Positions 26,485 through 31,875 of a DNA stretch of 64,000 bases are shown here, one piece after another. Where the stretch lies: positions 3,040,001 through 3,104,000 of the forward strand of contig OZ245742.1 of the NCBI GenBank assembly GCA_965227295.1, in the 5' to 3' direction. The first letter of the stretch is position 1, and each line of letters begins with the position of its first letter. Source of the DNA: Leptonemataceae bacterium. GTDB lineage: Bacteria > Spirochaetota > Leptospiria > Leptospirales > Leptonemataceae. The notes under the pieces are model-generated. The model had not been told where the DNA came from. It saw only the letters and a list, made by a program, of their open reading frames with translations, and made no database searches. Both the position numbers and the translations under genes were made by a program.

Positions 26485-27258
26485 ATGTTAAGAATGAATT
26501 CTCGAATTGTTGTCTTGTTTGCGGCGGTCGCTTTCGCCGCGGTCGGTTGCGGCGGCCCACTGGCTGAGGCGCGCATGTGTCAGAAGCTCGAAGGCGGGGA
26601 GTGTCCCGAGGGCCTGGAGATGTTCGTGCGCACGGCGAAGCGTTTGTATCTGAGCGGTCATCCGAACGTGGGAGCCGGCGCCGGCATTGAAGTGGACGTG
26701 CTGTATCTCCCGGAACCGGAAACGCCGGAGAGTGTTTACAACACGGTCTTCGAAGTGCCCGAGGGTGACGGGCCGGTGGCGATTCCCCTGGAACCGGGGC
26801 GGCTGAAGGTCGGATCGTATCGCCTGGTGGCGGGGGAGGCGGGCGCGGAGCCGGCCCTGGCCATGGAGTTCAGCGTCTGGAACACCCAGGCGGAGATTGA
26901 TGCGTTGCGCGAACTGGGTGACAAACGCGGTGCGATTCTCACGAGCATTCGCGTTTGCAAAGAAGCGGTGGACAACGAGTGCGAAGAAAGCTTCGAAAGC
27001 ATGCCGCACGGACAGAAGCAGTTTCATCTTACGTTTCACTACGACGATGTCATCGACGGCACCGAGGTTTCGATCGAATGGCTACGCAACGGCAAACGCA
27101 TCCACTTTCAAAAGAATCCGGCGGATTCCAGCAGCGGTCGCATGTGGGCGATGATCGGTCTTAAGAACTCGCCCATGGCCCGCGGAAAGTACGAGGCGCG
27201 CATTACGGCTTCGAAGAGCAAGCAGGGGATGTTGCGGAAGACGTGGGTGGTGAAGTAG
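26485..27258 (+). CDS. Lipoprotein with two tandem Cys-paired beta-rich domains
   Basis: Lipobox AVGC; RMCQKLEGGECPE and RVCKEAVDNECEE repeats. Confidence 0.7.
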   Translation: MLRMNSRIVVLFAAVAFAAVGCGGPLAEARMCQKLEGGECPEGLEMFVRTAKRLYLSGHPNVGAGAGIEVDVLYLPEPETPESVYNTVFEVPEGDGPVAIPLEPGRLKVGSYRLVAGEAGAEPALAMEFSVWNTQAEIDALRELGDKRGAILTSIRVCKEAVDNECEESFESMPHGQKQFHLTFHYDDVIDGTEVSIEWLRNGKRIHFQKNPADSSSGRMWAMIGLKNSPMARGKYEARITASKSKQGMLRKTWVVK

Positions 27259-27266
27259 GGGGAGGC

Positions 27267-28061
27267 TCAGGCGTCCTCTAAGACTCCGCGTTCGCGCAGT
27301 AGTTCTGCGGAGAGCCCGGTGGCCTCAATGACCGTGGCCGGATCGATCCCGAGTTCCAGCAAGCGCCGGGCAGTGTCGAGTTTGCCTTCTGCAATGCCTT
27401 CTTCACGGCCTTCTTCAATGCCTTCCTGGCGAATCCAATCGTAGACGGGAGACTCAAACATCAACGGACCTGCCTGGCGCATGATTTCCCGCGCACGCTC
27501 GGGATCGTGGATTCCAGTATAGATGTATAAAACCGAAAGTAAACTCGTTTTTTCATCCGGTGATAGGTTGTCTTCGTTTTGGATGCGTTGTCTTGCGCGC
27601 TCGACATACTGGTCGCCGTCCTGCATCAGGGGGATAAACGGCAGGATCGACACCCCGGCATCAATATAATCTGCTGCGGGCAATTCCCAGAGTTTCACAA
27701 GATGATAGCGAAATCGCAGGGCGTGGTCCGCGTACACATCTCGCGCGCCGGCATGCGGCCGAATCAAAAATACAAGCGCATCCACCGGCAGGCGATAGCG
27801 CAGCCAATAACGTGCATGGTACTCCACCAATCGCATGGGCAGGCCCGTCTCCCAGTTCGTCTGGTACTCTACTAAGACGACACGTTCCTCTCCGGATGCC
27901 AGAGTCATACGAACCGGCGCGTCGGATCGACGGACGTTGACGGTTTCCGTCGGCAGTTCGTCGAGAGTCTGAATTGCCGACGGCCGGACCTGTAGGAACT
28001 TTTGTAAGATCTCGTGTCCGCTGATCTGCATGAATTCTTTGGATGCGATGTCGTACTGCAT
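27267..28061 (-). CDS. Rpn family recombination-promoting nuclease / putative transposase
   Basis: YDIASK, RRSD...LVEYQ catalytic-type motif, LPFIPLM, EEGREEG repeats, TGLS tail. Confidence 0.85.
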   Translation of the reverse strand: MQYDIASKEFMQISGHEILQKFLQVRPSAIQTLDELPTETVNVRRSDAPVRMTLASGEERVVLVEYQTNWETGLPMRLVEYHARYWLRYRLPVDALVFLIRPHAGARDVYADHALRFRYHLVKLWELPAADYIDAGVSILPFIPLMQDGDQYVERARQRIQNEDNLSPDEKTSLLSVLYIYTGIHDPERAREIMRQAGPLMFESPVYDWIRQEGIEEGREEGIAEGKLDTARRLLELGIDPATVIEATGLSAELLRERGVLEDA

Positions 28062-28086
28062 GACGCGGCCTGCCAGAGCTGCGTCC

Positions 28087-28113
28087 AGTATATCAGATCC
28101 GGGTTGGTGTCAA
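28087..28113 (-). promoter_or_regulatory. Sigma70-like promoter for the Rpn gene
   Basis: Minus strand TTGACA-N15-TATACT with an extended -10 TG; spacer is short. Confidence 0.45.
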
Positions 28114-28229
28114 GGAAGAAATGTAGAATGGATCGCGATGTGCGGGCTGCTTTATGAATCGCCTGTAATGTCTCGCAGTCAGGATGCTGCGGTAGTCACG
28201 AGTGGTGAAGCAGGGGATAGGGTGCCCTT

Positions 28230-28721
28230 TCAGATTTCACGGATATATCGAATGGGAATGAACGAGATGTTTTCCGTCTGATCTAGCTTCCCGTCATCTT
28301 CGGCGCCCGTTACGGCGATGCCGACGACTCGACCGCTCTTATTGAACACTGGTCCGCCACTGTTTCCTGCAACAATACCCGAGTCGAGCAGGATACGTTT
28401 GATTCCGGAAACCATTCTATGGCCCGTGATTCGGACTTCCTTTCGGATGCCGGAGTCTCCATGGCGATAGTTTGGAAAGCCGCATACATATAGTGTTTCT
28501 CCGGTGTGGTAAGATGCGTTGTATTCCGCCTGAAAAGGGATTGTAGACACGGATGAATAGCACTCACAGACTGCAAGGTCGATGTCGGACGACCTTTTCA
28601 CTAAGTTGAGGGAGAAACTCTTGGTATCCTGATCGCGCAAGAAGGCTTTCGAATCTGCAAATACGACATGATCGCAAGTTACAATGCCCAGATCTTCCAA
28701 GGCGAATGCTGTTCCCTGCAT
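28230..28721 (-). CDS. Trypsin-like serine protease domain (retron effector), in frame with the RT
   Basis: Catalytic triad motifs TCDHVV, DIDLAV and GNSGGP; frame stays open upstream to 28787, directly behind the RT stop. Confidence 0.85.
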   Translation of the reverse strand: MQGTAFALEDLGIVTCDHVVFADSKAFLRDQDTKSFSLNLVKRSSDIDLAVCECYSSVSTIPFQAEYNASYHTGETLYVCGFPNYRHGDSGIRKEVRITGHRMVSGIKRILLDSGIVAGNSGGPVFNKSGRVVGIAVTGAEDDGKLDQTENISFIPIRYIREI

Positions 28722-28787
28722 AGCCTCCTGCTCAGATTCTACAACGAATATGCTGTTCCACTCAGAAATCGGAGGTGGTGCGACAAT

Positions 28788-29774
28788 TTAATCTGGAAGC
28801 ACGGATCTGAGTCTATCAAAGTAATTCTGATACACGGGATGATAAGGCCCCAATATCGCATATAAAAAGCTGAGCTTGCCGTTGATATGATGTACCAAAG
28901 ACGGATCGCGATCGCGGTATCGATTCCTATTTGCATATTTCGTTGAGAACTCTTCTTGGGTTTTCTTCAGGTCTTCCTTCCGTATTTTGCTGTAAATCGC
29001 TCTGAGCTCTCTTATGAATTTTCTGCCCGGAGTGACCGAGCTAGTCACTCGTAGGCCGGTGACGATTCCGCCGTTACTACCGTAGTAGAATTTTTGTTTC
29101 CGGCGGTTAATATGAAACCCATTTTCTTGGATGCAGTCCTCTATAGTATTCTGTAGAGATTGAGGTAGTTGGCCCGGGGATGACAGGTATTTCTTACTGC
29201 GGGATGAAAATGTAAGGTCGTCGGCGTAACGAGTATAGAATATCGAATATTCTCGGGCAACGGAGAGAAGATCGCGATCCATACTTCTGCAGACGATGTT
29301 AGACAGGATCGGAGATGCCGGAGAGCCAAGCGGAAGTGCGTTATCCAATGTGCTTAGCCTTGAAATGGCAACCGCGACTTGTTTATTGAAGCAAAAAGGT
29401 CTACCTCTTAGAGCACCGAGCACTCTTCCGAAATTGATAGAACCGAAAAAGTCCTCAAGATCCAGATTTAGAATCCACGCCGCGCCAACGTGCTGCCTGG
29501 CATTCGTGATAATACTCCGGCCAGTTCTGAAACCATGAGTCGAGCCCGGCGCAGTGTACGATTGTTCCAAAAGGGTTTTGATTTTCCTCTGCAAGGCTTT
29601 GAGGTAACTACCCGGGGCCGCAATTTGGCGGGCCTTTCCTTCGTATTTCACAATTTCGTGGCGACTGTAGAAGGAGGGCAGGTAGGCCTTAAATGCAAAG
29701 AACTCTAACCCTTTGTAGCTAACATTCAAAATTTGTGCGAGCTGGTGTAGGTTCCCCGGATAATTCGTTTCCAT
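28788..29774 (-). CDS. Retron-type reverse transcriptase
   Basis: NARQH (retron NAxxH), LDLEDFFGSI, LPLGSPASPILSN, YTRYADDLTFS, VTGL (retron VTG). Start taken at METNYP; ORF open from 29804. Confidence 0.92.
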   Translation of the reverse strand: METNYPGNLHQLAQILNVSYKGLEFFAFKAYLPSFYSRHEIVKYEGKARQIAAPGSYLKALQRKIKTLLEQSYTAPGSTHGFRTGRSIITNARQHVGAAWILNLDLEDFFGSINFGRVLGALRGRPFCFNKQVAVAISRLSTLDNALPLGSPASPILSNIVCRSMDRDLLSVAREYSIFYTRYADDLTFSSRSKKYLSSPGQLPQSLQNTIEDCIQENGFHINRRKQKFYYGSNGGIVTGLRVTSSVTPGRKFIRELRAIYSKIRKEDLKKTQEEFSTKYANRNRYRDRDPSLVHHINGKLSFLYAILGPYHPVYQNYFDRLRSVLPD

Positions 29775-29779
29775 AAGTA

Positions 29780-29945
29780 AAAATAGCCTCGTTAGAGTTC
29801 GCACTCTGATACATCAACCGACTACAGTCAGTCGCAAAGTCACATAAAGCGTTCTCAGGATTCATGTCCTGAATCGGCTGCAGTAACAACAGCCTTGAAA
29901 AACTCTGGAGGCAGTTGCAAATGGGCCTTCCCAATGCTCACATTT
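29780..29945 (-). ncRNA. Candidate retron msr-msd non-coding RNA
   Basis: Hairpins at 29917-29937, 29876-29894, 29855-29872, 29819-29834 and 29794-29807; long-range pairing of 29900-29912 with 29786-29800; immediately upstream of the RT. Confidence 0.6.
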
Positions 29946-30135
29946 ATTGTTATTAGTAGGATCAAAACTAGTTATAGTGGGTTTAGGGTCAATACAATAA
30001 GCCAGCCTGATATCCCGTCGTCTTACTGAAGCTCTCATCCTCCTGTAAAATCTTCCCCATCTGCCACCGCCCGCCAGAATGTCAGCCCCACGCAAAAAAT
30101 CGCAACCGAATCGCCCCATCGGCACGCCTTCTCTC

Positions 30136-30151
30136 CGGCACGCCGGTTGCA
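30136..30151 (+). promoter_or_regulatory. Sigma54 (-24/-12) promoter upstream of hsp20
   Basis: CGGCACG-CCGG-TTGCA matches TGGCACG-N4-TTGCW. Confidence 0.65.
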
Positions 30152-30205
30152 ATCCTCTTACCAACAGCAGCGGCCGACCGCCGCACATAGACTGGAGGAA
30201 CAACA

Positions 30206-30610
30206 ATGGCAGCATTAACGAAATACCGTACCCCGAGTCTCCTGGACCTCTTCTACGATGAAGAGCGGCGCCCGGAAAGCCGGAAGTACCGCCCGGCCGT
30301 AGCCGTACGCAAAAACGAGGCTGAGTATCAGCTCGTCGCCCATCTGCCGGGCGTGCGCAAAGAAGACTTGAACATCGCCGTGGAAGACGGCGTGCTCAAG
30401 ATCAGCGGCAAAGTCGCGGCGCACGCGGCGGAAGGATACGAAACCATCTACGACGAACTGCACGGCGCCGCCGAGTTCGAGCGCAACCTGAAGATCGATG
30501 CACGTCACTTTCAGGTAGATCGCATCGAAGCGAAGTTAAGCGACGGTGTGCTGACGGTAAACCTGCCGGTGGCCGAGGCGGTGAAGCCGCGGCAGATCAG
30601 CGTGGGTTAA
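30206..30610 (+). CDS. Hsp20/alpha-crystallin small heat shock protein
   Basis: LPGVRKEDL, VEDGVLKISG, FER, AKLSDGVLTVNLP; GGAGG RBS. Confidence 0.92.
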   Translation: MAALTKYRTPSLLDLFYDEERRPESRKYRPAVAVRKNEAEYQLVAHLPGVRKEDLNIAVEDGVLKISGKVAAHAAEGYETIYDELHGAAEFERNLKIDARHFQVDRIEAKLSDGVLTVNLPVAEAVKPRQISVG

Positions 30611-30623
30611 GAGAATCAAATAT

Positions 30624-30668
30624 AACCACCGAGGCACCGAGGACACTGAGACCGGTGCCCCGGTGGTT
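30624..30668. terminator. Inverted repeat between convergent genes
   Basis: AACCACCGAGGCACCG...CGGTGCCCCGGTGGTT. Confidence 0.55.
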
Positions 30669-30678
30669 TACCCCTCTT

Positions 30679-31875
30679 TCACTTCAACATCCACCGCACG
30701 TGATTGTAGTTCCACTCGATATCGTCCACCGTGCGTTCGCTTTCCGCGAAGCGGCCGATCTTGCGCGCATCGCAAACATAACCGCCGCGAACCTTTGAAA
30801 GATAGCGCCCGGCCCGTCGTTTCCAGAACCGCCCCAGGCGATCCTCGGCGTAGGTCGCGTCCGCGAGCGGCGAAGGCGGGCACTCCGGATGTTCGCGGAG
30901 CCGCGCAACGATCTCCAGGTAACGCTCGCGAAATTCCGCGCGCGTAAACGCATCGCGGCCCCGCCAATCGTGCAGGACCGCGGCGACGGCGTGACTCGCC
31001 GTGGGGATCGTGTTTTCCGTTAACGTGCGCCGGCCGTCATCTAAGAAATCCTCAATGCGTTCCCGTTCCGGCGGTGACACCGGCGGTCGCAGACGCAGGA
31101 ACGCCGCAATGCGGCCGAAGACGTCCGGGCACAGTTCATCGTAACTCATGGAGCCGAAGATCGTGCGCGCGTTTTTGCGACAGGCGAAGACGCCCATGAA
31201 ATCCTGGAGTTGCAGCACACGACCGTCGTGGCGGTAAGCGCCCTCGGGCATAATGAAAAACAATCGATTGTGATGTTCGAAGTCCTCCTGCACGGCGACG
31301 AGGGAATGCAGCGTCGTGCGGCGCGCGGTTTTGACGAAGGCGTCGTAGCCGAGGCCGGTGAGCCGCCGCCCGGCGAAGATCGTCGGATCATCGTATGCTT
31401 CCCGCTCGGGAACATCGCGTCCTTCGCGGTAGACCGGATGACAGTGCACGCCTTCGAAAATTCGTTTCACGAGCGCGCCGAGGGATTTCGCCGCGCCAAG
31501 GCCGAGCGGCCGGAGCAGCGTGTTCCGCTTGATGAACGGCGGCATGAGATCGCGGTATGGGTAGATGGGACCGAAGAGACCGCCCTGGGCAATGATCGTG
31601 AAGTCCTGGAAGCATTCGATCGGCCGGCCGATCATGAACTCGATGATGGAGTATACGTCGAGGGCCTTCTTGTGCGAGAACGCCAGGATCGGCGCCGGTT
31701 CGTCGCAACGCGGTAGATGTTCGTAGCCGTCGACGTAAAGTTCTTCTAATAAAAGGGGCAGCCGACCAATGCAGCGAAAGCGCGCGCCCCAGCGCACGGC
31801 CGCCGGTCCGACCAGTTTCGCCAGTTCGGCGCGGCGTTGAAGATTGCGACGGGACAGCGGGCGAACGGCGATCAT
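30679..31875 (-). CDS. Glycerolipid acyltransferase (PlsC-like) domain protein
   Basis: HX4D motif (SHKKALD) and MPEG; start uncertain. Confidence 0.7.
   Translation of the reverse strand: MIAVRPLSRRNLQRRAELAKLVGPAAVRWGARFRCIGRLPLLLEELYVDGYEHLPRCDEPAPILAFSHKKALDVYSIIEFMIGRPIECFQDFTIIAQGGLFGPIYPYRDLMPPFIKRNTLLRPLGLGAAKSLGALVKRIFEGVHCHPVYREGRDVPEREAYDDPTIFAGRRLTGLGYDAFVKTARRTTLHSLVAVQEDFEHHNRLFFIMPEGAYRHDGRVLQLQDFMGVFACRKNARTIFGSMSYDELCPDVFGRIAAFLRLRPPVSPPERERIEDFLDDGRRTLTENTIPTASHAVAAVLHDWRGRDAFTRAEFRERYLEIVARLREHPECPPSPLADATYAEDRLGRFWKRRAGRYLSKVRGGYVCDARKIGRFAESERTVDDIEWNYNHVRWMLK

Follow-up and report, generated by a model that had tools for sequence, protein, structure and literature searches.

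A type XI retron in a spirochaete genome, probably recently inactivated by a stop codon between its reverse transcriptase and protease

Type XI retrons are defined as clade 8 reverse transcriptases (RTs) fused to a trypsin-like protease; the accessible text of the defining study recognises no ncRNA for them in 2020 and names three clade 8 fusions, XI, XII and I-C (PMC7736814). A 2024 census states, in the part available, that clade 8 type XI ncRNAs were validated (bioRxiv 2024.01.25.577267); parts 1 and 3 of the four parts of its supplementary table hold type XI entries and no ncRNA sequences. XI-like lineages without a protease are described in a 2026 survey, which notes that type XI has no covariance model (PMC13712802); type XI is not mentioned in PMC12548924. 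In the literature searched, whose coverage left out most subscription papers, we found no functional test of type XI defence. In retron Eco2, according to the available parts of two papers, the fused TOPRIM is blocked by msDNA until DenB, a phage nuclease, breaks that msDNA down (PMC12916289), and the isolated TOPRIM is toxic, whereas the full fusion protein is not (PMC12405507). Concerning the start of msDNA synthesis, the accessible sections report that characterised retrons prime at a G after a1 (PMC6868368) and that in Eco1 substitutions around the priming G impair RT-DNA production (PMC11257497).

We analysed a stretch of 64,000 nucleotides (the window) from a Leptonemataceae bacterium. 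The features of its retron are presented in Table 1; all retron parts share the minus strand. The RT frame runs from ATG 29774 to TAA 28790-28788 and is then open for 185 codons up to TGA 28232-28230, so that in translation RT and protease form one reading frame parted by a single TAA. The read-through sequence (P0001, 516 residues with X at the stop) is the source of the residue numbering used here. An earlier note on this DNA had claimed an ncRNA-like region, an RT with NAxxH, VTG and YADD motifs and a protease with a catalytic triad on one strand, and all of these parts were recovered. Its description of an RT followed by a protease holds as far as both are present; it had left unstated that they share a frame with a single TAA.

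Table 1. Coordinates of the retron features and of the surrounding low-GC patch in the window.
Feature	Position	Strand	Basis or remark
Retron ncRNA (msr-msd)	29786..29912	minus	Fold, alignment with L027 and L028 upstream DNA, msr hairpin covariation
ncRNA, a1 arm	29912-29901		
ncRNA, msr hairpin	29894-29876		
ncRNA, variable msd region			
ncRNA, a2 arm	29799-29786		
Predicted priming (branch) nucleotide	29900	minus	T; inferred from alignment; opposite G at 29800
Retron reverse transcriptase, 328 aa	28791..29774	minus	PADLOC, Pfam, PDB match, tree
In-frame TAA in the RT-protease linker	28788..28790	minus	Translation, alignment, X1 and X2 contigs
Trypsin/HtrA-fold serine protease domain, 185 codons	28230..28787	minus	PADLOC, Pfam, structure model, Foldseek
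Low-GC patch of ~1.8 kb with the retron as sole content	28200..30000	none	GC profile and GC3; edges approximate

The RT contains the motifs NARQH (NAxxH; 29504-29490), YADD (29228-29217) and VTG (29063-29055). The usual PQG is replaced by PLG (Q151L), and a residue other than Q is also found there in 8 of 87 homologues. The best PADLOC model for the RT half is RT-Protease_XI (E 1.9e-93), and the top 25 models are all retron RTs, led by XI, XII and I-C. Pfam assigns RVT_1; the NCBIfam retron models match at E 1e-74, compared with 1e-19 for group II and 1e-10 for DRT models, and the NCBIfam Ec67 model reaches 250 bits against a cut-off of 450. The best solved relative in the PDB is retron Ec67/Eco2 (E 3e-37). 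In a tree of 118 RT sequences the window RT groups with the intact fusions L027 and L028 (support 1.0) and lies apart from all four non-retron outgroups, three of which are group II intron RTs; DGR and Abi RTs were left out of this tree. The RT phylogeny proposed in the earlier note thus placed the RT with the retrons, and on these comparisons it is a clade 8 RT, as type XI is defined. Of 69 columns conserved in the RT, the window sequence deviates in 11, against a mean of 3.2 among 87 fused homologues; the intact P0003 deviates in 13, and seven of the window's columns are common to both. Q151L counts among the window-only changes. The root-to-tip distance of the window RT is 0.60, compared with 0.76-0.91 in three intact relatives. 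We rejected decay of the RT as evidence, since intact P0003 departs more and the window branch is not long once rooted.

The predicted catalytic triad of the protease half consists of H371 (28670), D401 (28580) and S474 in GNSGG (28361). H and D are kept in all 87 fused homologues, which are those of 120 listed matches that carry GNSG, and S474 was hence a selection criterion. RT-Protease_XI is the best PADLOC model for this half too (E 1.3e-34), and Pfam assigns Trypsin_2; the type XI identity given in the earlier note therefore holds for both halves as well as for the position of the RT beside two type XI fusions in the tree. The structure model (mean pLDDT 87.4) matches DegS/HtrA in Foldseek (E ~1e-11). 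Judged against the 87 fused homologues the sequence of the protease half is without sign of decay: it departs at none of 23 conserved columns, and its root-to-tip distance is 0.36, compared with 0.69-0.80 in three intact relatives. The absence of decay points to a probably recent break, or else to a protease that remains in use.

Besides the window's own, three stand-alone homologues of the protease half were found; two lie on contigs shorter than 1.3 kb and the other, P0123, is a 178-aa protein on a 10-kb contig. The same protease family is also fused to an unnamed N-terminal domain of ~165 aa (P0128, P0130, P0133, P0136 and others). This domain is common to 40 of the top 150 profile hits and had no Pfam or separate PADLOC match in the members scanned; the fusion is possibly a non-retron defence protein with the same effector.

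Of 7,999 proteins scored in the protein search, 1,147 were hits, and 120 of these were listed. Among those listed, the best matches after the window's own RT are three intact fusions of 509-523 aa with 43-46% identity, or 45-46% as measured by BLAST, two of them named Leptospira. A full-length match is present in 2 of 155 other genomes of the order (L027 and L028) and in none of a further phylum sample of 400 genomes. The host had been read as an apparent spirochaete, in agreement with its GTDB order, which is that of the genomes whose RT-proteases match proteins named Leptospira. No relative above 46% identity was found in the protein matches, 156 genomes of the order, 401 genomes of the phylum, or the best 80 loci from each of the genome, metagenome and viral collections. 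We screened 242 fetched loci besides the window's own, and 83 of them have a protease right after the RT; they are a sample, because loci were not dereplicated and only the best of each collection were taken. Eighty of the 83 are single ORFs and three are frameshifted, L044 at the protease start and L172 and L174 within the RT.

Some of the relatives differ in their make-up or setting. In L055 (2890-4503) the fusion partner of a clade 8-like retron RT is a Schlafen/AlbA_2 domain, an effector outside the three clade 8 fusions named in the accessible text of PMC7736814. Both intact Leptospira copies resemble integron gene cassettes, as judged by eye: attC-like long inverted repeats come after the stop codon, one such repeat precedes L027, and an integrase-like ORF is found just upstream in L290. 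The stretches concerned are L289:9603-9760, L290:8977-9170, L027:1150-1310 and L290:6074-7177. No attC-like site was found at the window copy.

The low-GC patch has 47.5% GC compared with 59.8% for the genome, and only 0.18% of 29,685 genome windows of equal length are as low; the AT-rich island of the earlier note is thus real. The GC3 of the retron is 0.51-0.53, compared with 0.68-0.85 in nine of ten neighbouring genes checked; the adjacent Rpn-like gene has 0.62. Because GC and GC3 are low and a full-length match occurs in so few other genomes of the order, we infer a foreign origin, in line with the horizontal acquisition suggested earlier. The patch is flanked by the Rpn-like gene and hsp20; within two genes no WYL or DnaB_C neighbour is found, and the neighbours are these two genes and two proteins without a Pfam or NCBIfam match. 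The longest stretch shared by the flanks is 8 nt. An empty insertion site could not be defined in the two genomes of the same genus, because the homologues of some flanking genes that are kept there do not adjoin. A scan for promoters and terminators gave two promoter-like sites, with 2.3 expected.

The Rpn-like putative transposase/nuclease gene (27267-28061, minus strand) lies directly downstream of the retron, matches TIGR01784 below the cut-off and has two full-length paralogues (~70% identity) and two partial copies elsewhere in the genome. After hsp20 there is a short intergenic repeat (30604-30651), with about a dozen similar stretches genome-wide. The same genome contains five further RT loci (L002/L003, L004/L005, L006), two pairs having identical match scores; these are of the group II intron type, by a GIIM domain in L002 and by eye in L004 and L006.

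The ncRNA comprises 127 nt upstream of the RT, with a1/a2 arms around three hairpins. The stretch 29784-29914 folds at -47.3 kcal/mol (z = -4.03), and none of 200 shuffles folds as well. It aligns with the DNA upstream of the two intact relatives L027 and L028, whose folds are weaker (z = -2.48 and -1.81). For the msr hairpin, 33 loci picked because they show it were compared: 93% of cells are paired, compared with 24-63% for slid controls, and three of seven pairs have compensatory changes on both sides. Pair counts are limited to the msr hairpin because MAFFT left a1/a2 unaligned across loci. No Rfam family matches positions 27000-31000. A search of viral contigs with the 19-nt hairpin pattern gave one hit, dismissed as chance as it lies inside a phage ORF with no RT. 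At 29809-29794 of the window, and in the matching stretch of L027 and L028, the bases that would be templated first are a repeat of the a1 end and change together with it (three sequences only). It is therefore conceivable that the msDNA folds its 5' end back on a1 across the branch, or that a2 swaps partners.

Concerning the priming site, the base after a1 is T in the window, where the aligned base of both L027 and L028 is G. With the facing G, the T closes as a U-G wobble in the window fold; L027 and L028 have G/G. For 83 relatives, a script located the base after a1 and its facing base by the best pairing within 9-12 nt of the hairpin, with Watson-Crick pairs excluded; the pairing is partly circular because the site was chosen for it, the enrichment of G/G and A/A being free of this circularity. 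Thirty relatives were without anchor, four were weak and eight were duplicates. The remaining 41 callable relatives comprise 24 G/G, 8 A/A, 6 C/A, 1 G/T, 1 T/T and 1 T/G. When re-read by eye, the six C/A calls are G/G one base further in, so that a purine follows a1 in 33 of 41 by script and in 39 of 41 after the re-reading. The T/G call belongs to an intact fusion (L051:2797), whose sister L054 has G. Two earlier automatic a1/a2 callings misplaced several loci, the window's a2 in both, and were not counted. At the predicted position the window copy therefore lacks the priming G directly after a1 that is found in characterised retrons, and the T there is probably a second lesion. An alternative is the G at 29903, three bases upstream: all three Leptospirales copies have it, and priming could in reality start there.

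The A/A loci (L072:2797, L085:2851, L111:2837, L150:1600, L174:1149, L195:2351, L198:2348 and L200:2303, plus the duplicate L094) occupy four separate places on the RT tree, and in most the stretch from a1 to the msr hairpin has no unpaired G. This makes them candidates for adenosine-primed retrons, L150 being the least sure call; no description of such retrons was found in the literature searched, as far as its text was available.

In the alignment with the three closest fusions, which has no indel at this point, the stop is opposite E, N or D, and an in-frame linker stop is found in none of the 83 other RT-protease loci. The linker makes up ~13 of 516 codons (2.5%), and both domains are left whole by the stop. 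TAA is an ordinary stop codon in this genome, where it ends 715 of 2,130 long ORFs. The window copy thus departs from the one uninterrupted RT-protease ORF of type XI, and we file it as a broken descendant of the type and not as a functional member. Because a single stop codon cuts the protease off, the locus is probably a disabled copy and not a new system. Our preferred reading is that it is a horizontally acquired type XI retron whose fused gene was cut by the linker TAA and which has probably been inactivated recently. The earlier note had proposed a working defence module, and this part of it does not survive the in-frame TAA and the replacement of the predicted priming G by T. In the intact ancestor, by analogy with Eco2, the RT would start at the nucleotide that follows a1 and copy the msd region into msDNA. 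The complex of msDNA and RT would keep the fused protease inactive until phages damage the msDNA; the freed protease would then cleave a host or phage protein and cause abortive infection. The msDNA gating suggested in the earlier note has the same analogy as its basis. In the window copy translation would stop after 328 aa, giving an RT without effector, and msDNA priming is probably impaired too; the likeliest state is accordingly an RT without effector and with little or no msDNA. As no relative exceeds 46% identity, the recent age of the stop is a probable one, and, as the full-length Eco2 protein was non-toxic in the assay cited above, either lesion may have come first. What speaks against plain pseudogenisation is chiefly the undecayed protease and the placement of the stop in a linker of ~13 codons.

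These same two points are what a functional stop would lead one to expect, with low-level readthrough or re-initiation at ATG 28721 yielding a little protease beside excess RT and so dosing a toxic effector. ATG 28721, the first in-frame and only internal ATG of the protease part, is preceded by a strong anti-SD match (-10.3 kcal/mol), and the 178-aa P0123 shows that a stand-alone homologue exists. However, that match ends just 2 nt upstream of the ATG, where the usual SD-to-start spacing is ~5-10 nt. Also, the ATG sits past the first barrel beta-strand (model residues 13-18), which holds E348, a residue kept in 78 of 87 homologues; judging from the structure model, proper folding of a product started there is improbable. 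Of 87 ordinary fusions, 7 also have a Met at most four residues away from this position. As for readthrough, ARAGORN found 86 genes and no suppressor anticodon among them, and no special structure follows the stop, the 90 nt from it folding no better than shuffles (z = +0.4). With none of the 83 other loci having a linker stop, we regard a functional stop as doubtful. A fuller version, in which the TAA is a built-in throttle through rare readthrough or re-initiation and the priming base of the msDNA is not the canonical G that follows a1, is slightly more doubtful still.

It is also conceivable that the effector was dropped and that RT and ncRNA continue to function as a retron without protease, in the manner of the type XI-like lineages that have no protease and rely on different partners. 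The catalytic motifs of the RT are intact, its branch is not accelerated and the ncRNA fold is preserved; the accessible part of PMC13712802 counts 207 of 232 type XI-like loci in SPIRE without a protease. The T where priming is predicted, the Q151L change of the PQG motif (with the 8 of 87 exceptions given above), the Rpn-like and hsp20 flanks in place of a WYL or DnaB_C neighbour, and the whole protease coding sequence, which is still there, make this reading quite improbable. That the type XI retron is in truth intact and the stop an error of assembly or sequencing is highly improbable. The genome is a single-contig assembly whose method is unstated, but contigs of two runs cover the TAA codon, X1 at depth 175 and X2 at depth ~12, with no other letters and no gaps. 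The runs were separately assembled, and both come from one study, X1 possibly being the source sample; contigs drop rare alleles. The TAA in both therefore rules out most assembly errors and, because they come from one study, does not represent a second population.

As a probably broken copy, the locus has little importance alone. The intact spirochaete fusions L027 and L028, together with the defined ncRNA, are material for testing type XI defence, and a conserved ncRNA layout is now given for protease-fused type XI, for which the available sections of the 2026 survey hold no covariance model (PMC13712802). The A/A relatives, if confirmed, would be adenosine-branched retrons, and readthrough, if true, would be a new way to dose a retron effector.

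Compared with known systems, the protease has the fold and the GNSGG triad of the HtrA/DegS family of serine proteases, at ~21% identity; it differs from them in being the C-terminal part of an RT gene, and no PDZ domain was matched in Pfam. Like the protease-less lineages that resemble type XI (TXI_C2like as well as TXI_noncan_h), the window copy has a type XI-like RT that is translated without protease. Those lineages, however, as described in the accessible part of PMC13712802, contain no protease sequence at all, have WYL or DnaB_C neighbours and belong to Bacteroidota and Bacillota; the window copy has a protease in frame and neither neighbour, and so falls outside them. Retron Eco2/Ec67 (type I-C; PDB 9LM3, 9I2F) belongs to the same RT clade, is the closest solved structure and likewise joins RT and effector in a single protein, with the ncRNA upstream. 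The Eco2 effector is a tRNA-cutting TOPRIM RNase, whereas that of the window copy is a protease, and the Eco2 mechanism is demonstrated (PMC12916289, PMC12405507). The nearest system is type XI itself, as set out in the accessible text of Mestre et al. 2020 (PMC7736814): the window copy likewise has a clade 8 RT with a trypsin-like serine protease behind it in the same frame, and its ncRNA is laid out as in other type XI loci. The canonical type XI is one ORF, whereas the window copy has a TAA between the two domains and a T at the predicted priming G.
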